Shown here piece after piece: positions 23,317 to 43,000 of a stretch of DNA of 64,000 bases. The position numbers were made by a program, and so were the translations under genes. The notes beneath the pieces are model-generated. The model searched no databases, was not told where the DNA came from, and was given only the letters and a program-made list of their open reading frames with translations. Source of the stretch: Thermoplasmata archaeon (GTDB lineage Archaea; Thermoplasmatota; Thermoplasmata; Lutacidiplasmatales; UBA184); NCBI GenBank assembly GCA_022750435.1, contig JAKIVS010000006.1, positions 36,732 through 100,731 on the forward strand, given 5' to 3'. Every line of letters starts with the position of its first letter. The first letter of the stretch is position 1.

Positions 23317-23455
23317 CGGAGTTCCGCGGGACGCGTGGCGAGCGCGTGCGCTACAATTCGAGGGTGCGGGTCTATTTAACGGTGGGGACGCGCGGCGATT
23401 TTCCGCCGACCGGAGACGCTCCGGAGGCGAGCGCCAGCCCGCGTCCGGCCGTCGG

Positions 23456-23479
23456 CGTACGGCCGTACGTTAGCGTACG
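23456..23479. promoter_or_regulatory. three CGTACG hexamers within 24 nt (candidate regulator site)
   Basis: Hexamers at 23456-61, 23464-69 and 23474-79, immediately upstream of the TATA-like box of the LeuA-like operon. Confidence 0.3.
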
Positions 23480-23496
23480 AAGCCCGAGGGCTTCCG

Positions 23497-23506
23497 AAAG
23501 GTTATG
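23497..23506 (+). promoter_or_regulatory. TATA-like box AAAGGTTATG
   Basis: It lies 17-26 nt upstream of ATG 23523/23532, which implies a leaderless or near-leaderless mRNA. Confidence 0.35.
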
Positions 23507-23522
23507 TCGGCGGCCCCGCTCG

Positions 23523-24779
23523 ATGCGCTCGATGGACGCGCGGCCGCTCGTCGAGAACTACCACTCGGCCACGGCGTCGGCCCGCCACTTCGCCGACCCG
23601 ATCGTGTTCTGGGACGAGACGCTGCGCGACGGCGAGCAGATGCCGGGGGTCCACTTCTCCCCCGAGGAGAAACTCCGCATCGCGACGGTGCTGAGCGAGG
23701 TCGGCGTCCAAGTGATCGACGCCGGCATCCCGGTCGTCTCCCCGGACGAGGCCGAAGCCGTCCGCACCGTCGTCGGGGCCGGGCTCCGGGCCAAGATCCT
23801 CGCCTCCGCCCGCACGGTCGCGGGCGATGTGGACGCGGTCATCCGTACCGGAGCGACGCACATTGCGATCTTCGTCGCCGCGAGCGAGGTCCACCTCCGG
23901 TACAAGCTGAAGATGACCCAAGAGCAGGTCCTGGAGGCCTCCCTCGCCTCCGTCCGGCAGGCGAAAGACGCCGGCCTCCACGTCGCCTTCGTGACCGAGG
24001 ACACGGTCCGCGCCCCGTTCGACTATGTGGAGCGCCTGTACAAGGCGGTGCAAGAGGCCGGGGCCGACCGGCTGGTCGTCTCCGACACGGTCGGGATCAT
24101 GACACCGTTGACGTTCCGGTGGTACCTCGAAGAGTTCGCCCGCCGGGTCCACCCCAAGGACTGGTCCGTGCACTGCCACAACGACTTCGGACTCGCGGTG
24201 GCGAACACCCTCACGGCGCTCGAGGTCGGAGTGACCACGCCCCACGTCTGCGTCAACGGCCTCGGGGAACGGTCCGGGAACGCGTCCCTGGAGGAGGTCG
24301 TCGTCGCCCTGGAGTCGCTCTACGGCGTCCGAACCGGACTCAAGACCGAGCGCCTCTACGAACTCTCGCGCCTGGTGGAAGAGGTCTCGGGCGTGCCGAT
24401 TGCGCCGAACAAGGCGCTCGTCGGCTACAATTCGTTCAGCCACGAGGCGGGGATCCACACCCACGGCATCCTTGCCCACACCCTCACCTACGAACCGCTC
24501 CAGCCGGAGGTGGTCGGGCGTCACCGCCAGATGATCCTCGGCAAGCACACCGGGAAGGCTGCCTTGGTCGAGAAGCTGAAGGAGCACGGCATCACCACGA
24601 CCGACCCGCTCCTCGTGGAGCTCCTGCGCCGGGTGAAGAACGGCGGCGAAGCCCGCGGCAAGGACGAATTGCACCGATTCCTCGAGGAGTACCGGACCCT
24701 CTTCGAGCACCCGGGACTCACGGACAAGGAGTTCTGGCAGATGGTCGACGACGCCGGGATCCGGGGGAACGCACCATGA
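23523..24779 (+). CDS. 2-isopropylmalate / homocitrate / citramalate synthase family (DRE-TIM)
   Basis: WDETLRDGEQ, HCHNDFGLAVANT and GLGERSGNASLEE motifs. It is a short form without the long LeuA regulatory domain. ATG 23532 is an equally good start. Confidence 0.85.
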   Translation: MRSMDARPLVENYHSATASARHFADPIVFWDETLRDGEQMPGVHFSPEEKLRIATVLSEVGVQVIDAGIPVVSPDEAEAVRTVVGAGLRAKILASARTVAGDVDAVIRTGATHIAIFVAASEVHLRYKLKMTQEQVLEASLASVRQAKDAGLHVAFVTEDTVRAPFDYVERLYKAVQEAGADRLVVSDTVGIMTPLTFRWYLEEFARRVHPKDWSVHCHNDFGLAVANTLTALEVGVTTPHVCVNGLGERSGNASLEEVVVALESLYGVRTGLKTERLYELSRLVEEVSGVPIAPNKALVGYNSFSHEAGIHTHGILAHTLTYEPLQPEVVGRHRQMILGKHTGKAALVEKLKEHGITTTDPLLVELLRRVKNGGEARGKDELHRFLEEYRTLFEHPGLTDKEFWQMVDDAGIRGNAP

Positions 24780-26062
24780 GCACGAACGGGGGCCACGGGG
24801 GAACTCTCGCCGAAAAAGTCCTGGCGCGCGCGAGTCGTCTCGACTCCGTCGTGCCCGGCCAGATCATCGAGGGCCACGTCGACCTCGCGATGATGCACGA
24901 GCAGGGGGCCCAGACCGTCGGGCCGTTCCACGACATGGGCGCGACCAGCGTCTGGGACCCGGACCGGGTCGTCATCGCGATCGACCACTGGGTGCCGGCC
25001 TCGACGGAGGGCGCGGCGGTCCTCCACAGGATCCTCCGGAAGTTCGCGGCCGAGCAGAACCTGACCCACTTCTACGACGTCGGCAACCACGGAATCTGCC
25101 ACCAGATCCTCGCCGAGAACGGCTGGGTCGTGCCGGGCGACCTCGCCGTGGGCACCGACTCCCACACCAACATGCTGGGGGCGAGCGGCGCCGTGGCCGC
25201 GGGCATCGGCCCGACGGAGATGGCCGCCGTGCTCGCGCTCGGGCGCCTGTGGCTGAAGGTCCCGCCGACGATCCGCATCAACGTCAAGGGGAATCTCGGG
25301 CCGGGCGTGACGGCGAAGGACCTCGTCCTCCGGATCCTGGGGGACGTCAAGACCACGGGCGCGACCTACAAGGCCGTCGAGTACGGCGGGCCGACGATCG
25401 AGGGGCTGTCGATGCCCGAGCGGTTCACCATCTGCAACATGACGACGGAGATGGGAGCGAAGTGCGGCATGGTCGCTCCTGACCAGAAGACCTACGACTA
25501 CCTCGAGAAGATCGCGAAGCACGCCATGCACCCGATCCAGGCGGACAAGGATGCCAAGTACGAGCGGGTGATCGACATCGACGTCGACGGGATGCCGCCG
25601 ATGATCGCGTGTCCCTACTCGCCGGACAACGTCCGACCCCTGACCGAGGTCGTGCACGAGCACGTCAAGGTCGACCAGGCGTTCCTGGGCTCCTGCACCA
25701 ACGCGCGGATCGAGGACCTCCGGGAGGGAGCGGCGCTGATGCGGGGCCACAAGGTCCACGCCGGCGTCCGGTTCATCGTCTCGCCGGCCTCGACGGCGAT
25801 CTACAACCAGTGCCTCAAGGAGGGGCTCATCGACGTCTTCACCGAGGCCGGGGCCGTGTTCACGAACTCGAGCTGCTCGGCGTGCTTCGGCGGGAACATG
25901 GGGATCCTCGCGCCCGACGAGGTGTGCATCTCCTCCTCGAACCGCAACTTCCCGGGCCGGATGGGCCCGAAGGAGGCGCGCATCTACCTCGTCAGCCCCG
26001 CCGCGGTCGTCGCAAGCGCCATCAAGGGCGAGATCTCCGACCCGCGGGAGTTCGGCCTCTAG
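24776..26062 (+). CDS. 3-isopropylmalate dehydratase / homoaconitase large subunit (LeuC/HacA family)
   Basis: Aconitase-family motifs (DHWVP, GTDSHT, CNMTTEMGA, GSCTNARIEDL, NRNFPGRMG). ATGA overlap with the synthase gene. Confidence 0.9.
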   Translation: MSTNGGHGGTLAEKVLARASRLDSVVPGQIIEGHVDLAMMHEQGAQTVGPFHDMGATSVWDPDRVVIAIDHWVPASTEGAAVLHRILRKFAAEQNLTHFYDVGNHGICHQILAENGWVVPGDLAVGTDSHTNMLGASGAVAAGIGPTEMAAVLALGRLWLKVPPTIRINVKGNLGPGVTAKDLVLRILGDVKTTGATYKAVEYGGPTIEGLSMPERFTICNMTTEMGAKCGMVAPDQKTYDYLEKIAKHAMHPIQADKDAKYERVIDIDVDGMPPMIACPYSPDNVRPLTEVVHEHVKVDQAFLGSCTNARIEDLREGAALMRGHKVHAGVRFIVSPASTAIYNQCLKEGLIDVFTEAGAVFTNSSCSACFGGNMGILAPDEVCISSSNRNFPGRMGPKEARIYLVSPAAVVASAIKGEISDPREFGL

Positions 26063-26073
26063 GGGGTCCGGCG

Positions 26074-26595
26074 ATGAAGGACATCATCGAGGGCCGGGTC
26101 TGGGTGCTCGGCGAGGACGTCGACACCGACCAGATCATCGGCGGGAAGTACCTCACCATCATCGACCCGGAGGAACTGAAGAAGCACGTCTTCGAGATCG
26201 CGCTCCCGGAGTTCGCCAAGGGGGCGAAGCGCGGCGACATCGTCGTCGCCGGGATCAACTTCGGGTCCGGCTCGAGTCGGGAGCACGCCCCCCAGGCGCT
26301 CCGGGCGATCGGCACCGGCGCGGTCGTGGCCGACTCCTTCGCCCGCATCTTCTATCGGAATTCGATCAACCTGGGCCTTCCCACCGTGGAGGCCGCGGGC
26401 GTCCGGGCGATCTTCGAGATGGGCGACCCGGCGCGCATCGAGATGCGTGCCGGCCGGATCACGAACCTGCGCACCGGTGCCTCGGTGACGTTCCCCCCGC
26501 TCCCCCACCACCTCCTCGAGCTGCTCGAGGTCGGCGGACTCGTCGAAAAGGTCCGGCTGGAGCTGGAGGCCCGCCGGGGCGGGGCTCCGGCATGA
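26074..26595 (+). CDS. 3-isopropylmalate dehydratase / homoaconitase small subunit (LeuD/HacB family)
   Basis: GRVWVLGEDVDTDQIIGGKYL..., GINFGSGSSREHAPQAL and SFARIFYRNSINLG. Confidence 0.9.
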   Translation: MKDIIEGRVWVLGEDVDTDQIIGGKYLTIIDPEELKKHVFEIALPEFAKGAKRGDIVVAGINFGSGSSREHAPQALRAIGTGAVVADSFARIFYRNSINLGLPTVEAAGVRAIFEMGDPARIEMRAGRITNLRTGASVTFPPLPHHLLELLEVGGLVEKVRLELEARRGGAPA

Positions 26596-27725
26596 ACTCG
26601 GGAACCCCGCGCATCGTGGTCCTCCCGGGGGACGGCACCGGTCCGGAAGTCGTCCGGGAAGGGCGCAAGGTCCTCGACGCCCTCGCCGAGAACGACTCCG
26701 CTTCGTGGCGGGTGGAGGAGTACCCGGGGGGTGCCCAGTACTATCTGAAGACCGGCAAGGAGCTCGACCCGGAGACGGTTGTCGCCGCGCGCGAGGCCGA
26801 CGCGATCCTGCTCGGCGCCGTCGGTTGGCCGGGCGCTTCGATGCCGAACGGCGACCTCGCCGGCGGCGCCCTCGTGCTCGGGATGCGCCAGACCCTCGAC
26901 CTGTACGCGAACGTCCGGCCATGCAAGCTGTACCCGGGTGTCGTCCACCGGATCGGGAAGACGTACCAGACCGTCTGGCCCTCCGAGCTCGTCGACATGG
27001 TCATCATCCGCGAGAACACGGAAGGTCTGTACACCCCGGCGCGGGGGCGACTCCGCCGCTCGGACGAGACCGAGGTCGCCATCGACACGCGGGTGATTAC
27101 CCGGAAGGGCGCCGAACGCGTGATCCGGTACGCCTTCGAGCTGGCGCAACGCCGCCCGAAGGGGGCCCCCGAGGATGGGGTCAAACGGGTCACCTGCGTC
27201 GACAAGTCGAACGTGTTGGAGGGGTGCCGATTCTTCCGCGAGACGTTCGACCGGGTGGCGAAGGAGTACCCGTCCATCGAGCGCGACTACGCGTACGTCG
27301 ACGCGTTCACCCAATGGCTCGTGCGCAACCCGGAGCACTACGATGTGGTCGTCTCCACGAACATGATGGGCGACATCATCACCGACCTCGCGAGCGTCCT
27401 CCAGGGGGGAATGGGGTTCGCCGCCGGCGGGAACATCGGGGACCACCACGCGATGTTCGAGCCCGTGCACGGGAGCGCGCCGAAGTACGCCGGCAAGAAC
27501 CAGGTCAACCCGTTCGCGACGTTCTTCGCCGTCGAGATGATGCTCCGGTGGCTCTCGGAGCGCCGCGGCGACGCCGCGCTTGGCCGCCAGGCGGACCGCC
27601 TCGAGCGCGCGATCGGGAAGACGATCGCCGGCGGGACCGCCCGCACCTACGACCAGGGCGGGCACGTCTCCACGAGCGAGGCGGGCGACCGGGTCGCCGA
27701 GGCCGTCCGCGCGGAGCGGGCATGA
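26592..27725 (+). CDS. 3-isopropylmalate / homoisocitrate dehydrogenase family
   Basis: IVVLPGDGTGPEV, the NMMGDIITDLAS-type motif (NLFGDILSD equivalent) and GSAPKYAGKN. 4-nt overlap with the small subunit. Confidence 0.9.
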   Translation: MNSGTPRIVVLPGDGTGPEVVREGRKVLDALAENDSASWRVEEYPGGAQYYLKTGKELDPETVVAAREADAILLGAVGWPGASMPNGDLAGGALVLGMRQTLDLYANVRPCKLYPGVVHRIGKTYQTVWPSELVDMVIIRENTEGLYTPARGRLRRSDETEVAIDTRVITRKGAERVIRYAFELAQRRPKGAPEDGVKRVTCVDKSNVLEGCRFFRETFDRVAKEYPSIERDYAYVDAFTQWLVRNPEHYDVVVSTNMMGDIITDLASVLQGGMGFAAGGNIGDHHAMFEPVHGSAPKYAGKNQVNPFATFFAVEMMLRWLSERRGDAALGRQADRLERAIGKTIAGGTARTYDQGGHVSTSEAGDRVAEAVRAERA

Positions 27726-28903
27726 ACCTCGGCCGCGGCGTCGCCCTGGTCGGGGGCGCGACCACGAAGTTCGGGGTCCGGGCCGCCACGTGGGCGGAGC
27801 TTGCCCAGGAGGCCGGTCAGGCCCTGTTCCAGGCGATCCCCGCCCTCACGGCCGCGGACGTCGACAGCCTATTCGTCGGTGCCGCGGAACCGGAGCGGTT
27901 CGCCTTCCAGTCCCACGTCGCCCCGTTCGCCGCCGAGCAGCTGGGCCTCGCCCCGCGCAGGGTCCTCCAACGGACCGAGCTCGCCTGCGCGTCCGGCCAG
28001 TCCGCGATCCGCTCGGCATTCGCCTCCATCGCCTCGGGGCTCTCGGACGTCGCCGTGGCCGTCGGGGTCGAGAAGATGAATCTTCCGTCGATGGCGGAGG
28101 CGAACAGCTCCATGGCCTGCGTCATGGACCGCGCCTGGGACGGCGCGCACGGCGCGACCGCGCCTCCCTTCTTCGCGATGGTCGCCCAGCGCCACATGCT
28201 CGAGCACGGGACCACGGAGGAGGCGTTCGCCGCGGTCTCGGAAAAGAACCACAAGTTCGCGAACTCCAACCCGAACGCGCAGTTCTACGACAAGACGTTC
28301 GACCGGGCGAAGCTCGGCCGACTCCCGCTCGTCGCCCCGCCGCTCCGCCTCGGGGATTGCTCGTCGATGACCGACGGCGCCGCCGCGGTCGTCCTCGTCG
28401 CCGAGGAACTCGTCTCGAAGTACACGGACGTCCCGGTGCGCGTCCGCGGGACCGGCCAGTACGCCGATTTCCACAACCTCGCGAACGCCGGCTCGCTCAC
28501 CGACTGGGTCGGGCTCGAGCACGCTTCCCGGGAGGCGTACCGCTCGGCCGGCATCGGGCCGTCGGACGTGGATTTCGCCGAGACCCACGACTGCTTCACC
28601 ATCTCCGAGATCGTCGAGTACGAGGCCCTCGGGTTCTGCCCGAAGGGCGAGGGCGGCCAGTTCGCGCTCGACGGTCGGTCCTCCTTGGGCGGGGACGTCG
28701 TGGTCAATCCCCGCGGCGGCCTTCTCGGATGCGGTCATCCCCTGGGCGCGACCGGCATCGCGCAAGCGGTCGAGGTGTACGACCAGTTCGCCCGCCGCGT
28801 CCCCGCGGCGCGCCAGGTGCCGGACCCCCGATGGGCGCTCGTCCACAACCTGAGCGGGAGCGCGAACGTCCACTCGGTGATGATCTACGAGGGAGCGTCG
28901 TGA
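27722..28903 (+). CDS. thiolase-family protein (archaeal acetyl-CoA C-acetyltransferase / SCP-x type)
   Basis: VALVGGATTKFG, the active-site context ACASGQSAIRSA and the C-terminal NPRGGLLGCGHPLGATG. ATGA overlap with the dehydrogenase gene. Confidence 0.85.
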   Translation: MNLGRGVALVGGATTKFGVRAATWAELAQEAGQALFQAIPALTAADVDSLFVGAAEPERFAFQSHVAPFAAEQLGLAPRRVLQRTELACASGQSAIRSAFASIASGLSDVAVAVGVEKMNLPSMAEANSSMACVMDRAWDGAHGATAPPFFAMVAQRHMLEHGTTEEAFAAVSEKNHKFANSNPNAQFYDKTFDRAKLGRLPLVAPPLRLGDCSSMTDGAAAVVLVAEELVSKYTDVPVRVRGTGQYADFHNLANAGSLTDWVGLEHASREAYRSAGIGPSDVDFAETHDCFTISEIVEYEALGFCPKGEGGQFALDGRSSLGGDVVVNPRGGLLGCGHPLGATGIAQAVEVYDQFARRVPAARQVPDPRWALVHNLSGSANVHSVMIYEGAS

Positions 28904-28904
28904 G

Positions 28905-29447
28905 ATGAGCACCGAGGCTCCCCGGGAACGCCGTCCGGCGCCCGTCCTCGCCCCGGCCGCGAGCGCCGAGTCGGGGACGACGAGCCCGCCGGAGACGCCG
29001 AAGAAACCCCCCGCCCCACCGCTTCCGTTCCTGCTCGACTTCTTCCCGCTGGAGGACGCAAAACAGACGCGACTCTCGGCGTTCTTCGACAATCTGCGCG
29101 CGGGGCGGCTCACCACGACCCGTTGCCGCAAGGATGGTCGGGTCCGTTGGCCCCCCCGCGTGGTCTGCCCGGAGTGCCACACCAGCGAGCTCGACTGGGT
29201 CGACCTGCCCGTCGACGGCCGGATCTACGCCTTCAGCGCCGTTCTGATGGGAGCGCCCCTCGGCATGGAGTCCGAGGTCCCGTTCGTGGTGGGGCTCGTG
29301 GAGGTGGACGGCGTCCCCTTCCGCATGTTCGGGCGCATCGTGGGGACTCCGTGGGACCAGTGCCACGTCGGCCAGAAGGTGCGGGCCGAGCCGTACGACC
29401 TCCCGGACGGACGAGTCTTCTACCGATTCCGCACCGTCCCGGCGTAG
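28905..29447 (+). CDS. DUF35 OB-fold / zinc-ribbon protein (thiolase partner)
   Basis: ..RVRWPPRVVCPECHTSELDWVDLPVDGRIYAFSAV.. is the DUF35 rubredoxin-like knuckle plus OB fold. It starts 1 nt after the thiolase stop and has a Pro-rich N-terminal extension of about 50 aa. Confidence 0.8.
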   Translation: MSTEAPRERRPAPVLAPAASAESGTTSPPETPKKPPAPPLPFLLDFFPLEDAKQTRLSAFFDNLRAGRLTTTRCRKDGRVRWPPRVVCPECHTSELDWVDLPVDGRIYAFSAVLMGAPLGMESEVPFVVGLVEVDGVPFRMFGRIVGTPWDQCHVGQKVRAEPYDLPDGRVFYRFRTVPA

Positions 29448-29512
29448 CGCGGCGAATCGGCCACGGGCCTTCGCCCGAAATCGGAATACGGTCCCTCGGA
29501 ATCGGTGGGTCC

Positions 29513-29896
29513 ATGGCCGTCGGGACGAGCTGGGTGGGCGCGATCGTGATCGACTGTCGGGACCTGCCGCGGATGATCGAGTTCTGGCGCGAGGCGCTGC
29601 ACTATGTGCCCCGGGACCGGGCCGACGCGGACGGGGTCGTCCTGAAGGACCCGACGGGGCACGGGCCGAACGTCTCGCTCCAGCGGACGAACGAGCCGCC
29701 GACCACCGAATATCGCCTCCACCTCGACCTCTACTCGCCCGACGCGACCGCCGAGGTCCGACGGTTGATCGCCCTCGGCGCCGAGCTCCGGCGTCCGGCG
29801 GGGGCCGGGGACGACTTCGTCACGCTCGCCGACCCGGACGGCAACCTGTTCGATGTGGTGGCGAAGTCCGGCTGGTCGTTCGGGCAGCGGGCATGA
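29513..29896 (+). CDS. VOC/glyoxalase-like family protein
   Basis: 127 aa. WVGAIVIDCRDLPRMIEFWREALHY...HLDLY...LADPDGNLFDV is the typical VOC fold pattern. Confidence 0.7.
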   Translation: MAVGTSWVGAIVIDCRDLPRMIEFWREALHYVPRDRADADGVVLKDPTGHGPNVSLQRTNEPPTTEYRLHLDLYSPDATAEVRRLIALGAELRRPAGAGDDFVTLADPDGNLFDVVAKSGWSFGQRA

Positions 29897-30008: not shown

Positions 30009-30020
30009 TGGCTATTTATA
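30009..30020 (+). promoter_or_regulatory. BRE/TATA promoter element TGGCTATTTATA upstream of aglB
   Basis: Identical to the 12-mer at 3930-3941, and about 50 nt upstream of ATG 30070. Confidence 0.5.
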
Positions 30021-30069
30021 CCGGGCCTAGGTCTCGCGCCCGCGCCGTTTCGAGGAGAGTCGGCGACCG

Positions 30070-33000
30070 ATGGTACAGGCCGAAACGAGTTGGTGGCGCC
30101 GGCACAGCTGGACGATCGCCGTCCTGCTCGCCGCGTTTGGCATCTCGTTCCTGATCCGGACGCTGTACGTCCTCCCGCTCCTGACCCAGTGGGGAACCCC
30201 GTACCTCTTCGCGGGCGGCTCGGACTCGTTCTACCACTGGCGGGTCACGTCGTACATTCTGCTCAACCACCGGAACCTGGTCGTCGACCCGCTGCTGAAG
30301 TACCCGATCGGGGCGGTCAACCCGCGGGAACCGCTGTTCGACTGGATGAACGCCATCCTCGGCATCGTGTTCGCCCCCCTGTTCGCGAGCGGGGCCACGG
30401 CCGCCTGCTCGTCGTCGTGCCTTTCGGCGCAGTTCTTCCTCGAGCTGCAGGCGCCGCTCTGGGCCGCCCTCGGCGTCTTCCCCGTCTACCTGATCGGGAA
30501 GGAGGTCAGCTCGCGACGGATGGGCCTCATCGCGGCCCTCCTCTACGGATTGGTCGTCGCCAGCATCGACTCCTCGACGTTCGGCTACGCGAACTACCTC
30601 TCGTTCTACACGTTCTTCATCCTCGTCGCCCTCTACTCGTACCTGCGTACCGTCCGCGCCGCCGGCAGCAAACGGTGGGTGGAGAGTTACCGGCACCCCC
30701 GCCAATTCTACCCCGCTCTCCGGCAGTTCCTCCGGACCGAACGCACGGCCGTGAAGTGGGCCGTGTTCACCGGCGTCGCCTTCGGCACCGTCACCCTCGC
30801 CTGGCAAGGGTACTCGTTCCTGGTCGCCGCGATCGTGATCTTCCTCGTCGTCCAGATGGTCATCGAACGGATCCGGAAGGTCGATTCCTTCGGGCTCTAC
30901 GTCCTGACGTTCATCTCGGGGACCATCGGCTTCGCGATGGCCCTGCCGTACTACTACTTCCAGGGCCTCGGCAAGGTCTGGTTCTTCCAGCCGGCGTTGG
31001 TGTTCTTCGGAGCGTTCCTGGTCCTCGTTCCGTTCCTGCTGCTCCGCGACTCCCCTTGGGTCCTCTCCATCCCCGCCCTGCTCGCGACGGCCGCCGTCGC
31101 CGTCGCCGCCCTGTTCGTCCTCGACCCCCAGGACTTTGGGGCGATCGTGACGGGGCAGGGGTACTTCGTCAAGACCCTGATCTACTCGACCGTCGCCGAG
31201 GCTCAGGCGCCGTCGATCGACTCGCTGATTCTCGGGTACGGCGTCGTCACCTTCTTCCTCGCGTTCGTGGGACTCGGACTGTACTTCTGGCGGACGGTCC
31301 GTGACCGATTCCGCCGCGTCCAGGTGATGTTCATCGTCTTCGCGATCCTCTCAATCTACCTCCCGATCTCCGCCGCGAAATTCTTCTTCATCGGCTCGGC
31401 CGGGTTCGCCCTCCTCCCCGCGGAGGCGATCGTCCGGGCGCTCGACGTCGGGGACTACCCGACGTTGCGGCGCAACGTCGTGTCCCTCTCGGACCGACGA
31501 AGCCAGTTCGCGGCCCTGCGTCGATCGATCAAGGGACGCCACCTCCTCGTGATGGCCCTCGTCGTGATCATCCTCGTGCCCAACGTCTGGTACTCGATCG
31601 ACGCGGGAATCCCGTACAACAACAAGGGGACCTACTCCACCCAGGTGTACAACTCGCTCCCCGTGCCGCTCCGAACGACGCCGGGGAACGCGTCGTCGTA
31701 CTACCTCGGCGCCGCGGGGACGGAGCTCGATACCCCGAATCAGTACGACGAGAGCGGGTACAATTGGCTCGCCACGCAAGATACGCAGTTACCGGAGCCG
31801 CAACGTCCCGCGTTCATCAGCTGGTGGGACTACGGGTTCCAGGCCGCCGCCGAGGGGGACCACCCGACCGTCGCGGACAACTTCCAGAACGGGATCGACC
31901 CCGCCGGGAATTTCCTGCTCTCCCAGAACGAGTCGCAGGCGATCGCGATCCTCGCCTCGACGCTCCTCGTCGGAGAACAATCCCGGTCGGGCGACATCTA
32001 CCTCCCGAGCGAGCTCAACACGATCCTCGCCCGGGACGGGGTCAGCGTCTCGACGATCCATAGCCTGATGGTCAACCAATCGGCGGACATCCAGCTCGTG
32101 CTGGCCCACCCCGACCGGTACCTCCCCGTCGACCCGAACAACATCGACGGCCAGAACGCCATGTACGACACGATGGCGTACTACCTCGCGACTGCGCTCC
32201 CCACGAGCGGCGTCGCCGACCTGTACAACGACGTCCAGGCGTACACGGGCTGGTCGATCCGCTACGCGATGGTCGATTCGCGCCTGTTCCCGTTCAGCGG
32301 CTCGAACACGGGGATCTTCTACGCCCCCGCGGACCTGACCGACCGCGTCATCGGCGCCGGCGGGGCGCCCACGAGCTACTACACCCTCTCCGTCCTGGGC
32401 TCGGACGGCAACACCTACACGCCGGGGAACCTGCCCGCCGGCGTCACGGCGGTCCAGTACAACATCAACTATCTTCCGGCGTTCTACAGCTCGATGATCT
32501 ACCGGATCTACGTCGGGTACAACGGAACCGACATCGGGTCCACGCAAGGAATTCCGGGCCTCTCCCAGAACGCGGTCGGGGCGGACCCGATCGAGCCCGG
32601 CTGGATGCTCTCGCACTTCCAGGTCGTCTATCGGACGGCCTACTACTGCCCGCAGCCGAACGCCACCGCCGGGTCGAGCTGCTTCTCGGCGTACAACGTT
32701 CCCCAGGCGAGAGAGCTTGCCAAGTTGAACAACGGCACCGCCGACACCTCGACGAACTCCTACTTCGGCGGCGGCGAAGCGATGCTGGAGTACTACCCCG
32801 GCCAGCCGATGACCGGGACGGTCACCCTGCCCAACGGCGCCCCGGTGTCGAACGCGCGGGTCACCGTCTACGACAGCTGGGGGATCCCGCACATGACGAC
32901 GGTGACCGGCGCCGACGGCTCCTACTCCCTGGTCCTCCCTCCCGGGAACGACCGGATCAACGTCACGACGGGCACGCTCGACCAGCTCACGGAGGCCGGC

Positions 33001-36000
33001 GGCACCCCGCTCGCCGGGTTCAACATCACCGTCCCGAACGCCCTCGGCCTCTCGCTGAGCGCCCCGACCCTCGTCGAGCCGATCGTCGTCAAGCCGGCGA
33101 CCGTCAGCGGGTTCGTGTACTGGAACACCGCCAACAACTCGAGCTTCATCCGGAGCGTCGACGGGATCGTCACGGGCGCGAGCGCGAACCTCACCGGGGC
33201 GAACCTCACCAACCTCTCGGCGGCGACGGACGCGAGCGGGGCCTTCCAGTTCTCGAACGTCCCGCCCGGGGTCTACAACTTCACGATCCACTACCGGGGG
33301 GCGAGCTTCACGCAGTCGTCGGTGTACGCGCTGCCCGGCAAGACCGCGAACGAAACGATCGGGCTCTCGCCCGGCACCGTGCTGGGCCACGCCGACTTCC
33401 CCGACGGGTTCGCCGCCGCGGATGCGACCGTCACGATCTCCGACTCGCTGGGGGTCGTCCGCACGGCGACCGTCGGCTCGAACGGCAACTTCACCGCCGC
33501 GAATCTCGGGCCGGGGAACTACTCGGTCCGCGCCATGGCCCCGGGAGTCTCCATCGGCTCCGTGGGGACGACGTTCCTCGTTCCGGAGACCGGCGGAAAT
33601 GTCGTGGTCAACCTCACCCTGGTGCCGCTCGTGACCGTGAGCGAGGCCGTTACCTGGAACGGGAATCCCGTCGTCGGCTTCCCGGTCCGGTTCACGCAGC
33701 TGTTCACCCCGACGGCGGTCCAGGCCGGGCCGCCGAAGACCAACGGGACCCCCAGCGCATCGGCTCCGACCGCCGCGAAGTCGAACACCTCGGTGTTCCT
33801 CACCGGGCCGGACGGGGTTGTCCGGGCCACGCTCCCGATCGCCAACTACTCGGTGTACGCGTTCGGCTTGAACGGCTCCCGCTGGCTGGCGGGCGTCCAA
33901 ACGGTGTACCTGTCGGCCCAGAGTTCGGGTGTCCTGCCGGCCCTGTACGTCTCGAACGCCGTGCAACTCTCCGGAACGGTCACGGGGGCCCCGTCGACCA
34001 CGGCCGGCCCGGCGACGGTCGAGGTCACAGCCTACGACGCCTCGGGCCACCAGGTGTCGACGTTCGCGAACCTGACCCAGCAGTACTCGCTCTGGCTTCC
34101 GACCGGTCGCTACACCCTCCTCGCGAGCTCCATCATTCCCAACTCCTCCGCCCCGCCGGTCGCTTCGCTGACCACGGTCGACCTCGCCTACCCGACCGTC
34201 GACCCGATCGCGCTCGCGCCGGCCGAGTACGTCTCGGGGGTCGTGGCGGCACCGTCGTCGGGAAGTAGCGCCCCGTACCCTGCGAGCGGCGCCGTCGTCC
34301 GGTTCACCGAGATGCCGCTGAACGCTACCGTGACCACCGTGGCGTCGGGCACCGGGAACGTCACCGTCATCCTGCCGGCCGTGCTCCCGGCCGGGGGCAG
34401 CTACTGCATCGTTGCGAACGCGAGCGGGTTCGAGCCGTTCCAGACGTGCAGCTACACGGCCGCCGAGCTCGGCGCGCTCGGCGAGATCCCGATGAACCTC
34501 GCGCCGATCCCCCTCAATTTCACGGTGAACGGCCTCCCGAGCGGTACGTCCGTCACGGTCAACTTCACGGCCCTCAGCGCCCCCGCGGCGAGCACCGTCA
34601 AAGTCGGCGGTCCGTCGTTCTCCTTCGCCATCGTCCCCGGCAGTTACCGGATCAGTGCCTGGGCGAAGGCTCCGTCCGGTCCGGGTCTCCTCCTCCCCGC
34701 CCAGTCGCTGAACCTGACCGTCCCCGTCGGCACCCACGGCGCCAACGTCACTCTCACTATCGTCCCGCAGGTCGCCGCCACCGGCCACCTCGTCCTGCCC
34801 ACGGGGGTGCTGAACACCTCGGTGTCGCTCCGCCTCGTCTCCCCGACGATGGCCCTGTCCGTCGACGGCGCCATGTTCGAGGGGAAGTTCTACATCGCCC
34901 CCGGTACCTACTCGGTGTACGCCACGGCCCCGACGGGGGCGAACGGTACGCTCGCCACGATGACGTCGGTCGTCGTGAACGCGACCGGCCACCTCTCGAA
35001 GTCGATCTCGCTCACGCAGCTCGGCGTGCCTCTGACCGGTACCTTGGCGAGAGATTCCGGCGTCCAGCTGAACGTCTCCCTGCCGCTCACCCTGACCGGC
35101 CCGGCGGGGGTCGCGCTGACGGTGAACGCGAACGGGGGCCACTTCGTGGCCACGCTCCCACCGAACGCCACCTACCAGGTGCGAGGGAACGCGACGGTCC
35201 TCGTGCCGTCGCCGACGGGGAGCGTGTACCAGTACGTCGCCGTCGACCCCTCGTACCTCGGGTGCGTCCTCGGCGCCGAGTCAAACGCGTCGTGCACCAT
35301 CCCGTTCGTCACGACCACCGTGGAGACGAACGTCTCCGGTACGTTGCACGCCGCCGGCTTTGCGAACCCGGTCGCCGGAACCGTGCAACTGATCGGTCCG
35401 TTCCCCTCGACCAACGCGACGGTCGCGACCGCCTCGAACGGAACGTTCTCGACCGCCGTGATCCCGGGGAACTACTCCCTCTACGCCGTCGCCTCGGACG
35501 GCGTGCCGTATGCGAGCGTCTCCTACCTCACCGTCGGACCCACCATGGCGGCCCCGCTCGCGGTGACGCTGCTCTCCACGTGGACCGATACGGTGACCGT
35601 GGTTCCGCCCTCGGGCTCCACCGAGACCGTCGCGACGGTGACGATCACCGCCCCCGGTGGCGCGGACCTGTCGTTCCCCAACGAACCGGTCAACACTCCG
35701 GTCGCGTTCGCGCTCCCGGGCGGCGCCTACACCGTGGCCGCCCGCGGTTCGGGCAACCCGTACGGCGTCGTGGTGAACGCCACGGCGTCGAGCGTCGTCT
35801 CCCTGCTGAGCGGGAACGCCGCGACCCAGCTCGCGCTCGCCTACCAGTTCACCACGTCCGTCGACTTTGCGACCCTCGGCCCGGCCGACGTGACCGTCCC
35901 GGCCGGCGCGACGGTATCGTTCGCCTTCACCATCACCAACACCGGGAACGAGCCCCGGAACCTCACGTTCGTCGGGTCGCCCGCGTTCTGGAACTTCACC

Positions 36001-36711
36001 TTCCTCCCCAAGTCGGTCCAGCTCGGCGTGCTCGGGGCGAATCGCACGGTCGGCGGCGAGGTCCGGATCGTCGTGCCCGCCGGAACCTCGACGTTGCAAC
36101 CGTCGGTCCAGCTCGAGGCGGTCGACGCGGTCACGAAAGCGCCCGCGGGATTCGCGCAACCGGTGCCCACGATCTCGATCGTGCCGGTGCTCGGTCTCTC
36201 GCTCGGGGCGTCCAGCAGCATCGGGGCAACGGTCGGCCCGTACCAGGTGACCATTCCGTTCTACGCGTCCAACACCGGCAACCTGCCGGAGTCGACGACG
36301 TTCGGCGTCTCGGACAGCGCCCGTCTCGCGTCGATCGGATGGACTGCCACGGTGGAGAAGGGGACGTCGCCGCTGCTCGGCCCGACCCCGATCGCTCCCG
36401 GGACGAACTCGACCTTCCAGGTCGAGCTGGTCTCCCCCGCCAAGCAGGCGCTCCCGCCCGGGTCGGTCACCGTCACGGCGATCGTCAACAACCTCACCGG
36501 CGGGTTCACCCGAACCGTCGTGCTCAACGTCCCGACCGTCTCGGTCTCGCTGAACAACTCCACCGCGATCGTGACCGGCCCGAACCTGGGTTCGCCCAGC
36601 CCGTACCCCTCGTGGCTTCCCTCGCTCCTCGCGATCGTCCCGGCGGCGGCGCTCGCTGCGGTGCTCGTCGGATATCGGTGGTTCAAGACGCGGAGGTGGA
36701 CCCGCCGGTGA
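30070..36711 (+). CDS. aglB: giant oligosaccharyltransferase AglB (STT3) fused to a ~1300-aa beta-sandwich repeat region and C-terminal TM anchor
   Basis: Multi-pass TM N-terminal domain with a GGSDSFYHWR loop. The WWDYG catalytic motif is at nt 31822-31836. Repeated carboxypeptidase-regulatory-like and Ig-like modules follow, with very many N-x-S/T sequons. The C-terminus is LLAIVPAAALAAVLVGY + RWFKTRRWTRR. Confidence 0.85.
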   Translation: MVQAETSWWRRHSWTIAVLLAAFGISFLIRTLYVLPLLTQWGTPYLFAGGSDSFYHWRVTSYILLNHRNLVVDPLLKYPIGAVNPREPLFDWMNAILGIVFAPLFASGATAACSSSCLSAQFFLELQAPLWAALGVFPVYLIGKEVSSRRMGLIAALLYGLVVASIDSSTFGYANYLSFYTFFILVALYSYLRTVRAAGSKRWVESYRHPRQFYPALRQFLRTERTAVKWAVFTGVAFGTVTLAWQGYSFLVAAIVIFLVVQMVIERIRKVDSFGLYVLTFISGTIGFAMALPYYYFQGLGKVWFFQPALVFFGAFLVLVPFLLLRDSPWVLSIPALLATAAVAVAALFVLDPQDFGAIVTGQGYFVKTLIYSTVAEAQAPSIDSLILGYGVVTFFLAFVGLGLYFWRTVRDRFRRVQVMFIVFAILSIYLPISAAKFFFIGSAGFALLPAEAIVRALDVGDYPTLRRNVVSLSDRRSQFAALRRSIKGRHLLVMALVVIILVPNVWYSIDAGIPYNNKGTYSTQVYNSLPVPLRTTPGNASSYYLGAAGTELDTPNQYDESGYNWLATQDTQLPEPQRPAFISWWDYGFQAAAEGDHPTVADNFQNGIDPAGNFLLSQNESQAIAILASTLLVGEQSRSGDIYLPSELNTILARDGVSVSTIHSLMVNQSADIQLVLAHPDRYLPVDPNNIDGQNAMYDTMAYYLATALPTSGVADLYNDVQAYTGWSIRYAMVDSRLFPFSGSNTGIFYAPADLTDRVIGAGGAPTSYYTLSVLGSDGNTYTPGNLPAGVTAVQYNINYLPAFYSSMIYRIYVGYNGTDIGSTQGIPGLSQNAVGADPIEPGWMLSHFQVVYRTAYYCPQPNATAGSSCFSAYNVPQARELAKLNNGTADTSTNSYFGGGEAMLEYYPGQPMTGTVTLPNGAPVSNARVTVYDSWGIPHMTTVTGADGSYSLVLPPGNDRINVTTGTLDQLTEAGGTPLAGFNITVPNALGLSLSAPTLVEPIVVKPATVSGFVYWNTANNSSFIRSVDGIVTGASANLTGANLTNLSAATDASGAFQFSNVPPGVYNFTIHYRGASFTQSSVYALPGKTANETIGLSPGTVLGHADFPDGFAAADATVTISDSLGVVRTATVGSNGNFTAANLGPGNYSVRAMAPGVSIGSVGTTFLVPETGGNVVVNLTLVPLVTVSEAVTWNGNPVVGFPVRFTQLFTPTAVQAGPPKTNGTPSASAPTAAKSNTSVFLTGPDGVVRATLPIANYSVYAFGLNGSRWLAGVQTVYLSAQSSGVLPALYVSNAVQLSGTVTGAPSTTAGPATVEVTAYDASGHQVSTFANLTQQYSLWLPTGRYTLLASSIIPNSSAPPVASLTTVDLAYPTVDPIALAPAEYVSGVVAAPSSGSSAPYPASGAVVRFTEMPLNATVTTVASGTGNVTVILPAVLPAGGSYCIVANASGFEPFQTCSYTAAELGALGEIPMNLAPIPLNFTVNGLPSGTSVTVNFTALSAPAASTVKVGGPSFSFAIVPGSYRISAWAKAPSGPGLLLPAQSLNLTVPVGTHGANVTLTIVPQVAATGHLVLPTGVLNTSVSLRLVSPTMALSVDGAMFEGKFYIAPGTYSVYATAPTGANGTLATMTSVVVNATGHLSKSISLTQLGVPLTGTLARDSGVQLNVSLPLTLTGPAGVALTVNANGGHFVATLPPNATYQVRGNATVLVPSPTGSVYQYVAVDPSYLGCVLGAESNASCTIPFVTTTVETNVSGTLHAAGFANPVAGTVQLIGPFPSTNATVATASNGTFSTAVIPGNYSLYAVASDGVPYASVSYLTVGPTMAAPLAVTLLSTWTDTVTVVPPSGSTETVATVTITAPGGADLSFPNEPVNTPVAFALPGGAYTVAARGSGNPYGVVVNATASSVVSLLSGNAATQLALAYQFTTSVDFATLGPADVTVPAGATVSFAFTITNTGNEPRNLTFVGSPAFWNFTFLPKSVQLGVLGANRTVGGEVRIVVPAGTSTLQPSVQLEAVDAVTKAPAGFAQPVPTISIVPVLGLSLGASSSIGATVGPYQVTIPFYASNTGNLPESTTFGVSDSARLASIGWTATVEKGTSPLLGPTPIAPGTNSTFQVELVSPAKQALPPGSVTVTAIVNNLTGGFTRTVVLNVPTVSVSLNNSTAIVTGPNLGSPSPYPSWLPSLLAIVPAAALAAVLVGYRWFKTRRWTRR

Positions 36712-37526
36712 GCCGCTCCGTCCCGCTCCGGCTGCTGCTCGTCGCCGCCCTGCTCGTCGCCGCCGTGGTGCCGGCCCTCTCGGCCGTCCCCGCCGCCCGC
36801 GCGACCCCCTCGTACGGCCCGCTCTCCGGGACGATCTCGGGCCCGGCGAACCTCGGCGAGACGCAGAACGCCTCCTACGTCGTCAACGTCTCCGGCGGGC
36901 CGGCGGTCGCCTCGAACGGCACGCAGGTCGGGATCTACTCGTACAACGCCTCGGTGACCGGGACGAACACCACGGGGGTCTCCTTCTCGCCGAGCGCGGG
37001 CTCGATCCCGAACGGGACCGTCACCCTCCAGCTGAGGGTCTCCAACATTTCGCAACTCCTGACCCTCTACGTCCTCGTGACCTCCTCGGAGTCGGGGACG
37101 AACGCGACGCAGAACCTCTCCTACTCGGTCAACGTCCTCGTCCCGTACCGGATCTCCGCGACGCTCGTCGCCGGCTCCAGCGGAACCGTGAGCCCGTTCG
37201 TCCTGACCGTGACCCTCGACGGGACCCCGGTCGGTGCGATCCCGGTCGGCACGCTCACGGCGGGCGCGCACACGCCGATCGCCTACAGCTACGTCAACCC
37301 GAACCTCGCGCCGGGATGGCACACGTTTTCGATCTCCCTCGCCGAGGAGCACGGGCTCGTCTCGTTCGCGGGCGGGGCCGAGTCGATCTCGGTGTCGTTC
37401 TACGTCGCGGGCCCCCCGCCGAACGACTCGGTGTTCCTCGTGATCGGGATCGGCGCGTTCGTCGGAGTCGCCTTTATATGGAGCCTCCGGGTCGGCGCGG
37501 GCCGACGCGGACGCCCCAAGAAGTGA
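36708..37526 (+). CDS. secreted N-glycosylated protein with C-terminal TM anchor (unknown function)
   Basis: The GTG start overlaps the aglB stop (GTGA). Signal peptide VPLRLLLVAALLVAAVVPALSAVPAARA, 10 N-x-S/T sequons in 272 aa, and a C-terminal VFLVIGIGAFVGVAFIWSL + RVGAGRRGRPKK. Confidence 0.65.
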   Translation: MSRSVPLRLLLVAALLVAAVVPALSAVPAARATPSYGPLSGTISGPANLGETQNASYVVNVSGGPAVASNGTQVGIYSYNASVTGTNTTGVSFSPSAGSIPNGTVTLQLRVSNISQLLTLYVLVTSSESGTNATQNLSYSVNVLVPYRISATLVAGSSGTVSPFVLTVTLDGTPVGAIPVGTLTAGAHTPIAYSYVNPNLAPGWHTFSISLAEEHGLVSFAGGAESISVSFYVAGPPPNDSVFLVIGIGAFVGVAFIWSLRVGAGRRGRPKK

Positions 37527-40079: not shown

Positions 40080-43000
40080 ATGACCTTCGGCCGACCGAGT
40101 GGATCGACGTTCCGACGAACCCGGCTCGGCGCCCTCCTTCTGGTCGTCGCCGTCGCAGCGATCGCGGTGGCGAGCTACGCCGCGGTTCCCGCCGCCGCCG
40201 ACGTCTCCGCCGGCTCGCCGTCCGCGCATTCGTCCGCAAAGGGAGTCACCCCGACCCCGGCGAAGGTCGCCGGAGCGGTTCCGCATCCCTCGTCGGTGCC
40301 GGCCCGGGTCGCCCCGACCAGCTGGACGTCGCCGCACGTCGCTTTCCACGTCGCCGGACCCCATCCCGCCTCCTGGGGTGGGGCGACCCCGCCGGGAGCG
40401 CCCATGCCGGTCATCTCCTCTGGAAGCGGGTCCGGCGGGTACAACTACTCCGGGCTCTACCAGCGATGCTATGGGGTCTGGCCCACCGAGGGTGGACAAT
40501 CGCAGTACTGGGACAACTGCTACGGCCACGACGAACCCGGCATCGCGCCGTACTCGAACCTCCCGGGCAGCGGCGGGAACGTCACCTGGCAGATCCAGCT
40601 GCCCGTCGACCGCGGCCCGACGGAGAACCAGTCGAACCTGTACTCGGCGATCTGGTTCGGCCTGACGCTGAACGACCCGTACGCTTGGATGAACCAGTGC
40701 TTCCTCGAACTCCAGTTCTACCCGGACGCGAGCTGGTCAGTCCCGTTCGGGACCGTCGACGGTCTCTGGGTCGGTGCGGCGGTCGCCTGGCAGATCCAGG
40801 CGTCGACGGGAGCCGAAGACCCGTGCTACTACTCCCCTCTGATGCTCCAAGGTTCGGCCGGGTCGTTCTTCTCCATGACCCAGGGCGACAAGATCAACGT
40901 CACGATGACCGGATGGACCGGGAGCGCGACGGGCGAGAACCTCACCATCACCGACGGGACGTCCGGCCAAGTGTCGAGCCTGACGCTGTTCAACTCCACG
41001 GCGAACTATCCCATCGACCCGGCGTACTCGACGAACTCCTGGTCGAACTCCCTCTGGTGGACCCCCGGTGGCGAGACCCCGGTCTCCTTCGCGTTCGAGA
41101 CTGGCCACGCCGGCAACCCGACCGTTCCGGAGAACAACGACTTTGGCGGCTGCAGCCCCGGGGCCCCCCCGCCGACGCTTGCGAACGGGGCCGTCCCGTG
41201 CCCGAGCTACGACCCGGGCGACTGGGCGAACGACACGTTGACCCCATGGGAGATCGCGCCGCCGACGTTCTTCAACTCGGCCGAGCGGGCGTCGACGACC
41301 CAGGTTGGCTTCACGCAGGACCTCGGTGGCCTCGCCTTCATTGACGGCTCCGACGTCTTCGGCTCCTTCCCGTACACCTGCCTCGGGCACGAGACGAGCG
41401 CGTACTGCAGCTACCCCTGGTATAGCTACTCCTGCGCGGAAGGGGCGTACAACTTCGGCGCGACCGACTACGGAACATCGCCGACGACGGTCGACTTCGG
41501 GAAAGCGACCGAGTTCACCGCCAGGCTGACGACGAACGCCGCCGGACTCGGGTACTATACACCGGCGAACCAGACGGTCCCGGCATGCGGTTCATTGACC
41601 GGCACCGTGAGTATCGGCGCCGTCCTCGGGGTGAGTGTCTCGTTCCTGAACGCCACCGTCGCGAGTGGGATTGAGTCGTTCCCGAACGTACCTCTTGGAA
41701 ACTACTCGATCTCCGCCTGGGGCCCCCGTGGCGAAACGTTTGCGGGTTGGGTGACGAGCCCGGGCCTCTCGGTCGCCAACGCGGCAGACCCGTACACCAA
41801 CCTCCATGTCAGCGGCGCCGGAGGGAGCATTCTCCCGTCGTTCACGTCCTCACCGCCTTCTGTCCTCCTCACGAACGTCACGTTCGACTCGTCGACCCCG
41901 GGCGCGGCGGTCTCGTTCGTCCCCGGCTTTGCGTCGAGTGCGTTCGGGGACGGGTGGGTCAACGGCACGCAGGAGCTCCCGGCCGGGAGCACCCTCCCGC
42001 TGGGGCCCGGGCTCTATAGCCTCCAGGCCCAGCCTCCGTCGGGATACAATTTCACGGGGTGGTACTCGTCGAACCCGTCGGCGGTCACCTTCTCGGCTCC
42101 CGACTTCCCCGCGACGATCCTCCATGTCGTCACCGGCGGCCAGAACGTCACGGTCAACGCGTCGTACGCGCCGACGGCGTCGATCGCGACGGTCATCGTC
42201 TTCACCCTCGCTCCGGGCGACACGATCACGCTCAACGGGACGAACTACAGCACGTTGTCGGAGGTCGTCCTCCCGGTCGGCACCTACCCGCTCTCGTTCC
42301 AGGCCGGGCCGGGCGCGCGGTTCGAGACATGGTCCGGCGGCGGCTCCGAGATCCTGACCAACTTCTCCGCCTCCACTTGGGTCACCTTCGAGGAAGGCTT
42401 CTCCGAGCTCGAGGCGGTGGATTATGCGATCCAGTCGGTCACGCTCAACGACTCCGGTGGCCACGGGACGATCGCGTGGGATCCGGCCGCCAACCTCAGT
42501 ACGGTCGCCGTTCCCTCCGGGACGCCTCTGACCGTTAACGTGAGCGAAACGGTGTTCCCCGGATTCCCTCTCGTCGCGATCCCGATTGGTGGATACGCGT
42601 TCTCGAACTGGACCGTGAGCAACGCCTCGCTCGCGTCGTTCCAGAACCCCCTCGCATACTCGACGGAGGTGATCTTCAACGCCTCGGGCACGGCGCCCCT
42701 GACGATCACTGCGAACTACGTCGTCGGCTCTTCCGCCAACCTCTCGCTGTACGTGGCCCCCCCCGCCGGCGGGGCCCTCACCGTCGGCTACTCGACCCCG
42801 CTCGCCAACGGCACTTCCCTGAGCGTCGCCACGGGCGACCTGAACGTCGTTGCCTGGCCGAACGCGGGATACGTCGTCGGAACGCTGACGGCGAACAACG
42901 GCAGCACCGTCTCGCTCCTGCAGTCGGCGTCCCCCACCAGCCGGCCGTGGGCCCCCTCCGAGTGGATCGTCGACGTGGCGGGCGACACGCAGCTCCACGC

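Follow-up and report, generated by a model that had tools for sequence, protein, structure and literature searches.

AglB is the one universal enzyme of archaeal N-glycosylation. To our knowledge, the AglBs that have been characterised or solved are all compact proteins of ~600-1100 aa; the solved chain of Archaeoglobus fulgidus AglB-L (AfAglB-L) has 875 aa, and solved STT3 chains have 705-826 aa. Beside STT3 stand ribophorins, OST48 and TRAP, which contribute membrane-anchored luminal beta-sandwich modules. The structure of AftD, a giant mycobacterial arabinofuranosyltransferase of the glycosyltransferase C (GT-C) class, reportedly has a large extracytoplasmic beta-sandwich carbohydrate-binding region that is followed by more C-terminal transmembrane (TM) helices. 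In NOMO, a chain of 12 prealbumin-like domains leads to a C-terminal TM helix and a short tail; the protein is part of the BOS complex, which sits at the Sec61 translocon, and has been reported to set the spacing of sheets of the endoplasmic reticulum (PMC11186639). Here we analyse a 64-kb stretch of Thermoplasmata archaeon DNA (contig JAKIVS010000006.1, positions 36,732 to 100,731; the window below), which encodes an AglB of 2213 aa. Its oligosaccharyltransferase (OST) half is continued in the same polypeptide by 13 beta-sandwich domains in a row, which end in a second membrane anchor. We think it likely that the gene is the genuine AglB of a soil Thermoplasmata archaeon of the Lutacidiplasmatales group, in a giant, doubly anchored form. 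That estimate covers the best explanation as a whole, including the mechanism and the role of the tail that we infer below.

An original prediction, made from the letters of the window, had described one uninterrupted frame that joins an AglB to ~1300 aa of beta-sandwich modules, and had pointed out that the characterised archaeal AglBs are far shorter. Both statements hold, the first by orthologue lengths and by an open reading frame (ORF) scan, the second by the solved chains listed above. The gene has an ATG start, 2213 codons and a TGA stop, and contains no internal stop:

30070..36711, + strand: aglB ORF, from a frame scan and full-length orthologues

The G+C content of aglB at the three codon positions (0.59/0.52/0.93) is that of other genuine genes of the window, which has a G+C content of ~70%. 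Among 5.8 billion proteins searched, at least 120 protein clusters matched at 48-88% identity. Apart from two, they are 2186-2231 aa in length, with a query coverage of 97-100%; the two exceptions have 2117 and 2125 aa and cover 95-97%. For the gene itself, we scanned one genome per prokaryotic species and took the best 80 of 588 relatives as our locus set. All 80 come from metagenome-assembled genomes named 'Thermoplasmata archaeon' (acid soils, peat and similar samples), including Candidatus Lutacidiplasma silvani. The whole aglB gene is contained in 69 of the 80 loci, and in 64 of these 69 one ORF spans it, measuring 2190-2430 codons from stop to stop and nearly always ending in ...RWWRTRRWTRR.

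A lost stop or a frameshift, introduced during assembly or gene calling, might have fused two genes, and the remaining five loci of the 69 (L017, L046, L050, L059, and L066) do have shorter, broken ORFs. All five are long-read 'MFD' bins from one data set, and tblastn found that homology runs on in a different frame, which marks them as indels and not as two genes. At 70% G+C in the gene, homopolymer indel errors are the probable cause of the breaks, and pseudogenes the less likely one. Every other locus, and the more than 120 protein clusters, have the single frame. The junction itself (32517-32921) is spanned by contigs of four independent soil metagenomes that differ by substitutions and by zero indels, so the check for an indel or stop at this point came out clean. 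A split-gene form was found neither among the 80 genomes nor among 150 distant representatives, and no cluster or locus has a stop that separates two genes. On the strength of orthologue lengths, the frame analysis of the five short loci, and the independent metagenome contigs, we rejected a two-gene artefact, to which we give practically no credence.

To place the gene in a wider family, we searched its first 900 residues with HMMER against 1.84 billion cluster representatives. Among the 619 matches, those at 31-42% identity are mostly 2000-2800 aa long, and the shorter ones are mostly fragments. Relatives at 31-38% identity reach lengths of 2000-3200 aa. Source names place the distant relatives across Thermoplasmata/Thermoplasmatota. 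The Poseidoniales (Marine Group II) form has 3171 aa, and the forms of Ferroplasma sp. (on a 1.86-Mb contig) and Caldiplasma sukawensis have 2056-2093 aa. The distant giants share the first sandwich domain (D1) right after the enzyme, including a D..GIPH patch, as well as two penultimate domains with an N-T-G-N motif. These shared features indicate that the fusion is old, and it was probably present early in Thermoplasmatota. A TM helix and a basic tail close nearly all long relatives, a few of which have PGF-CTERM-like signals. The proposed survey of AglB lengths in relatives thus returned a general giant form and not two separate genes; judged by these sequences, it is the usual AglB of Thermoplasmatota and is not peculiar to one genome.

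Some distant giants vary at their ends. Six of them (P0160, P0192, P0194, P0208, P0234, and P0241) combine 13 N-terminal TM helices with a C-terminal P-G-F-E/G, a TM helix and a basic tail, an ending that corresponds to a PGF-CTERM-like archaeosortase signal. In P0204 (2747 aa), a block of additional hydrophobic helices is inserted ahead of the enzyme domain's last TM helix; P0268 (3171 aa, Poseidoniales) is extended at its N-terminus by ~360 residues that contain more TM helices.

Hidden Markov model searches and structure prediction, both suggested along with the original prediction, found STT3 and CarboxypepD_reg domains and modelled a beta-sandwich chain. The protein divides as follows:

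30070..31614, + strand: GT-C transmembrane domain, residues 1-515, ~13 TM helices (the last at 489-512), from hydropathy, AlphaFold2, Foldseek, and Pfam
31615..32781, + strand: extracytoplasmic globular domain, residues 516-904, matching the C-terminal domains of AfAglB-S (3vu0/3vgp)
32782..33069, + strand: D1, first prealbumin/CarboxypepD_reg-like sandwich, residues 905-1000, from PF13620 (E 6e-11 on the isolated segment) and modelled strands
33070..35844, + strand: D2-D11, ten beta-sandwiches, residues 1001-1925, from AlphaFold2, a Pfam clan match, and a NOMO2 profile match
35845..36534, + strand: D12-D13, Ig-like domains with an N-T-G-N motif, residues 1926-2155, from AlphaFold2 and sub-threshold Pfam matches
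36616..36690, + strand: C-terminal TM helix, residues 2183-2207, from a hydropathy peak at 2183-2201 and an AlphaFold2 helix
36676..36708, + strand: cytoplasmic tail R-W-F-K-T-R-R-W-T-R-R, residues 2203-2213 (consensus YRWWRTRRWTRR)

The enzyme half is an AglB by fold and a distant one by sequence. Pfam STT3 (PF02516) matches residues 51-424 with 28.3 bits (cut-off, 24.5), and an AglB_core-like Pfam match at residues 575-628 is sub-threshold, both on the whole protein and again on the isolated segment. NCBIfam TIGR04154 (archaeo_STT3) matches residues 16-816 with 234.3 bits, below its cut-off of 450. An AlphaFold2 model of residues 1-1013 (mean predicted local distance difference test, pLDDT, 71.6) shows 13 long helices plus a globular domain of mixed structure, in which C860 and C871 form an invariant Cys pair. 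With this model, Foldseek placed A. fulgidus AglB-L first (7e9s/3wak; E 6e-20 to 1e-19; template-modelling score, TM-score, ~0.6), followed by human STT3A/B, yeast Stt3, and PglB. A single-sequence search against the PDB matched the WWDYG region alone (3vu0/3vgp), and family profiles were needed to reach AfAglB-L and NOMO2 there. In structure, residues 1-1013 thus match AfAglB-L best (PDB 3WAK, 5GMY, and 7E9S; E 6e-20, TM-score on the target 0.62) and have in common with it the 13-TM GT-C fold, the Asp of external loop 1 (EL1), the TIXE Glu, and WWDYG. AfAglB-L differs in having only ~15% sequence identity to the giant AglB, and in stopping after its globular domain at 875 aa, with neither a 13-sandwich chain nor a second anchor.

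We mapped the active site from an alignment of 52 giant AglBs, the profile of the canonical ones being aligned residue by residue to AfAglB-L. The elements are:

30214..30237, + strand: EL1 motif G49-G-S-D52-S-F-Y-H56, invariant in 36-49 orthologues and aligned to AfAglB GGNDPWYY
30571..30600, + strand: EL2 segment S168...N175-Y176-L177, at the site of the canonical R...D-x-D/E/H metal-binding motif
31189..31200, + strand: EL5 segment T374-V-A-E377 (TIXE-type), invariant and aligned to AfAglB TIAE
31378..31380, + strand: K437 in S-A-A-K-F, standing where the Arg of AfAglB NRF is (PglB R375, yeast R404)
31822-31836, + strand: W585-W-D-Y-G589, invariant in orthologues

Two of these had been named beforehand: the GGSDSFYHWR loop is present at residues 49-58, and the position given for WWDYG was exact. 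The description of this half as a 'standard' AglB stands for the GT-C fold, GGSDSFYH, TVAE, and WWDYG; it fails for the second metal-binding motif and for the Arg that meets the lipid-linked oligosaccharide (LLO), both of which are replaced. D52 (AfAglB D47, PglB D56) and E377 (AfAglB E360, PglB E319) are kept and invariant. By contrast, AfAglB R154, D161, and H163 are changed to S168, N175, and L177, respectively. In AfAglB these three residues coordinate the metal; PglB R375 and yeast R404 contact the LLO pyrophosphate (PMC7226087, a review).

The replacements of the metal motif and of the LLO Arg are limited to the clade of the window protein (relatives of at least 40% identity), within which N175, Y176, L177, and K437 are invariant. 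Relatives outside the clade have SAxRF at the K437 position. The two deepest branches retain the upstream Arg, which points to a stepwise remodelling of the site. At the EL2 motif, most distant giants retain ER[ST]...DHD, and other clades have GYD, DWD, GR-x-HT (Ferroplasma type), or [AS]RHY.

Has the AglB half then lost catalysis, and become a sequon- or glycan-binding membrane module while a separate, canonical AglB does the chemistry? The substitutions S168, N175, L177, and K437 at positions with assigned roles (PMC7226087) are what such a pseudo-enzyme might show, as are the low Pfam STT3 score (28.3 bits) and a TIGR04154 score of 234 against a cut-off of 450. Against it, conservation is highest in the enzyme half, at 61-95% identity among orthologues compared with 36-82% for the tail. 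In addition, D52, T-V-A-E377, and WWDYG are as invariant as the replacements N175, Y176, L177, and K437 themselves. Non-canonical residues at the EL2 motif also occur in other clades of Thermoplasmatota, the Ferroplasma type among them, and the 64-kb window contains no second WWDYG gene. Because the enzyme half is best conserved and its replacements are invariant, we read the site as a working, non-canonical one rather than as decay. Conservation thus suggests that the remodelled site is catalytically competent, and we regard a pseudo-enzyme as unlikely, though it keeps some weight.

The tail is one long series of beta-sandwiches. AlphaFold2 modelled residues 1014-2213 with a mean pLDDT of 83, all beta save the terminal helix; together with D1, we counted 13 sandwich domains, taking the boundaries of D2-D11 from DSSP strings. 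Eleven sandwiches in all are of the prealbumin/CarboxypepD_reg type, and most of D2-D11 have the signature LP-G-x-Y-x-(V/L)-x-A; a disordered insert lies at ~1218-1232. PF13620 matches the whole protein with 94.7 bits in five stretches. The best of these, at residues 915-971, is the very CarboxypepD_reg-like stretch that the original prediction had quoted, and the Pfam transthyretin-clan matches include domain models of EMC7 and NOMO. D12 and D13 resemble each other (BLASTP E 3e-4). Pfam hits to them (NEW3/NPCBM_assoc, DUF7507, and HYDIN-like Ig) all fell below cut-off, and with sub-threshold scores only, we did not adopt a CARDB or NEW3 label for these two domains. Internal repeat similarity among the tail domains is weak; they are old, diverged repeats. 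Invariant residues of the tail are mostly Gly, Pro, Tyr, and Trp, joined by the Cys pairs 1446/1460 and 1732/1742, which fits a structural, extracellular module.

Two parts of the tail depart from this picture of a diverged chain. First, D1 is conserved like the enzyme: column conservation is ~0.75 for the enzyme half plus D1 (0.71 for D1) and ~0.5 for the tail. Its patch D935-x-W-G-I-P940-H941 is invariant or nearly so, and the D, P, and H are kept in giants of ~30% identity. The patch points to a site of functional contact or of binding, and not to a plain spacer domain. Second, the last 13 residues reach a column conservation of 0.81, so that the 11-12-residue tail YRWWRTRRWTRR is the top-conserved block of the protein in Lutacidiplasmatales-type orthologues; distant giants have merely generic R/K tails in its place. 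Hydropathy and AlphaFold2 (helix 2183-2207) bear out the predicted C-terminal TM helix followed by RWFKTRRWTRR. Helices at both ends of the chain would give an N-in/C-in topology, with ~1650 extracellular residues forming one loop held at both ends.

Structure searches with the 1200-residue tail gave generic sandwich proteins in the PDB (alpha-2-macroglobulin, complement, hydin-like ciliary proteins, and pilins), at TM-scores of ~0.1. With family profiles, the best tail relative in the PDB was human NOMO2, at E 1.5e-18 with the orthologues and 1.5e-32 with the distant giants. Like the giant AglB tail, NOMO (PDB 9C7V) strings prealbumin-like domains in tandem and has one TM helix at the C-terminus, then a short tail in the cytosol. 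Unlike that tail, which is fused to AglB, NOMO is a type-I protein of its own, has a signal peptide, and is not fused to STT3. Two further systems are alike in part. AftD, as described above, offers a precedent for a GT-C enzyme with soluble modules and a second membrane anchor, but it belongs to another GT-C family and has a different substrate and different domain types; no relation to it in sequence was seen, no search being aimed at one. Ribophorins, OST48, and TRAP are separate polypeptides, and their sequences have no detectable resemblance to the tail or the CARDB-domain protein described below.

The tail also has all the features of a stand-alone, C-terminally anchored surface glycoprotein, and the giant protein might be a precursor: once inserted in the membrane, it would be cut to give an AglB of normal size and an independent type-I surface-coat glycoprotein, in a 1:1 ratio. 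PGF-CTERM-like ends, which are archaeosortase-processed, occur in some distant relatives and would suit such processing; the window protein has no P-G-F motif before its terminal TM helix and ends in ...SPYPSWLPSLLAIVPAAALAAVLVGYRWFKTRRWTRR. What speaks against cleavage is the junction. Residues 880-1000 are conserved and structured and do not form a linker, D1 is conserved like the enzyme, and no conserved low-complexity or protease-site-like spacer lies between the two halves. Nor did any of the 80 genomes or 150 distant representatives encode the two halves as split genes. We consider a cleaved precursor improbable.

The extension had been described as rich in N-x-S/T sequons, and the counts bear this out. 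Residues 901-2170 contain 44 sites, ~3-fold more than the 14.3 +/- 3.3 expected from composition-preserving shuffles; the TM domain contains 1. Each of 36 aligned orthologues has 30-50 sequons, and ~30 positions are kept in at least half of them. Per 100 residues, the tail has 3.46 sequons, two other predicted surface proteins of the window have 3.68 and 3.04 (each ~3-fold its own shuffle expectation), and cytoplasmic proteins have 0-0.7. Because the two other surface proteins reach an equal density, the sequons mark the tail as an ordinary extracellular glycoprotein and are no evidence for a special self-glycosylating device.

The original prediction had also called the tail S-layer-like. This part did not survive: fold and profile searches yielded generic sandwich chains with NOMO2 as the best, and no S-layer family appeared in the Pfam or NCBIfam scans or in the PDB fold and profile searches. 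In its strongest form, the idea is that the tail is the lattice-forming S-layer protein of the organism, fused to its own glycosylating enzyme. The tail is indeed large, sequon-rich, beta-rich, and membrane-anchored, the gene has a TATA-box promoter, and there is a single weak Foldseek match to the SlaA/SlaB assembly (E 0.05). Yet no specific similarity to any S-layer protein was seen, two-ended anchoring to a 13-TM enzyme is hard to square with a regular two-dimensional lattice, and the window encodes a separate surface glycoprotein of 1513 aa. The same design is moreover found in Ferroplasma, and Thermoplasmatales other than Picrophilus are without an S-layer (PMC5155288). For that reason, positioning of the enzyme in a cell-surface lattice, which had been offered as one possible role, cannot be the general function. 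We hold an S-layer fusion to be very improbable; a contribution to the glycoprotein coat of S-layer-free cells would fit better.

The 1513-aa predicted surface protein (40080-44621, + strand) has a signal-anchor-like N-terminus, 46 sequons, Cys-rich modules, and a C-terminal TM helix. It has no Pfam match and is present in three of 80 related loci, a distribution that points to a fast-evolving or variable protein. It is a candidate for a major surface or S-layer protein.

Around aglB, we mapped three further features:

30014..30020, + strand: ATTTATA, TATA-box-like, ~50 nt before the aglB ATG, with a promoter role suggested by its sequence
~30052-30057, + strand: GAGGAG, Shine-Dalgarno-like
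36708..37526, + strand: gene translationally coupled to aglB; its 272-aa product carries a signal peptide, a domain of CARDB type and 10 sequons, and closes with a TM helix and basic tail

ATTTATA at 30014 had been called the strongest promoter motif of the window. As an archaeal promoter element it is good, but the 64 kb contain four TTTATA sites, this one included, and a top rank is not demonstrable. A look for RNA-seq runs turned up none. The predicted translational coupling to a downstream glycoprotein is present, as the aglB stop overlaps the GTG start of the 272-aa gene (GTGA at 36708-36711), and 55 of the 64 complete loci preserve a stop/start overlap of the form [AG]TGA. The 272-aa gene lies right after aglB in all of the 69 loci that extend far enough (80 fetched), and 24 of 26 orthologues of its product match Pfam CARDB. 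This conserved coupling suggests that the CARDB glycoprotein is a partner made in step with AglB, and a candidate accessory subunit. BLASTP detected no homology between the tail and either the 272-aa or the 1513-aa surface protein.

Downstream, TTTATAT at 37473-37479 (+ strand) lies inside the 3' end of the CARDB gene, ~140-230 nt before the coding region of elongation factor 1beta (EF-1beta; GTG at 37616, Pfam EF1_GNE match from ~37730). It is probably the EF-1beta gene's own promoter, and with this separate element in place, aglB and the CARDB gene look like a two-gene unit. Upstream, metabolic genes occupy 23346-29896 on the same (+) strand. By sequence only, they include isopropylmalate/homocitrate-synthase-like, aconitase-type large- and small-subunit, and isopropylmalate-dehydrogenase-like genes; a thiolase, a ChsH2-type OB-fold/zinc-ribbon protein, and a glyoxalase-fold protein are confirmed by Pfam. 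Synteny with aglB extends to the thiolase and OB-fold pair in 64-69 of the 80 loci.

Taken together, we propose the following mechanism for the giant AglB. The N-terminal half would transfer a dolichol-phosphate-linked glycan to the Asn of N-x-S/T. Activating the amide would be the task of D52 and E377, and WWDYG would bind the +2 Ser/Thr; K437, instead of a pair of Arg and divalent metal ion, would handle the leaving phosphate. The tail would itself be N-glycosylated, like the other surface proteins of the organism, and could act as a spacer or scaffold, in the form of a rod or arch like NOMO, keeping the enzyme in the glycoprotein coat and adding to that coat. The protein would probably work jointly with the co-translated CARDB-domain membrane glycoprotein.

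Several points weigh against this proposal. The metal motif and the LLO-phosphate Arg are both replaced in the clade, while it is conservation that argues for catalytic competence. The spacer or scaffold role, which we favour for the tail, is drawn from architecture and from resemblance to NOMO, and that likeness is one of a widespread domain family (the CarboxypepD_reg clan) and of architecture, not of orthology. The Foldseek matches of the tail are generic, with low TM-scores, and the inter-domain geometry of the AlphaFold2 model is uncertain (predicted TM-score 0.50), which bears on any rod or arch.

A bolder version would make the locus a 'mini-translocon accessory complex'. Here, the OST would be metal-independent or otherwise altered in mechanism, and its prealbumin-domain chain would be a true evolutionary relative of eukaryotic NOMO. 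Jointly with the CARDB protein, this chain would build an extracellular cage or spacer in which nascent surface proteins pass through and receive their glycans, and the giant AglB would be a main structural element of the glycocalyx of wall-less Thermoplasmatota. If true, OST and BOS/NOMO, two eukaryotic modules associated with Sec61, would be joined in one archaeal polypeptide. None of the eight neighbouring genes scanned against Pfam encodes a homologue of Nicalin or TMEM147. We regard this version as a long shot, and the proposal of a giant, doubly anchored AglB with a spacer or scaffold tail remains the one we prefer.

As far as our literature search shows, the architecture is new, the AglB fold itself being known: we found no paper on a giant AglB or on a fusion of STT3 with CarboxypepD_reg, and the Lutacidiplasmatales paper with its supplements mentions neither STT3 nor AglB nor glycosylation. 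Database labels conceal the architecture. NCBI labels such proteins 'carboxypeptidase regulatory-like domain-containing protein', 'glycosyltransferase family 39 protein', or 'hypothetical protein', and JGI labels them Stt3; with the NCBI labels, annotation-based surveys of archaeal N-glycosylation would miss the giant AglBs.

An AglB of 2000-3200 aa with a NOMO-like chain and a second anchor is found Thermoplasmatota-wide, in a phylum that includes abundant soil, marine (Poseidoniales), and acidophilic (Ferroplasma) archaea. The giant AglB may serve as a single-chain model for how beta-sandwich modules aid an OST, comparable with ribophorins, OST48, TRAP, and NOMO around STT3 and Sec61. With its metal motif and phosphate Arg replaced and its other catalytic residues invariant, the enzyme half amounts to an experiment of nature on how an OST works, one open to direct testing. 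Among the new leads, the altered active site and the conserved CARDB partner lend themselves best to tests. Should the tail be a spacer or scaffold, the giant AglB would bear on how the glycoprotein coat is organised and kept stable in archaea that have no S-layer.

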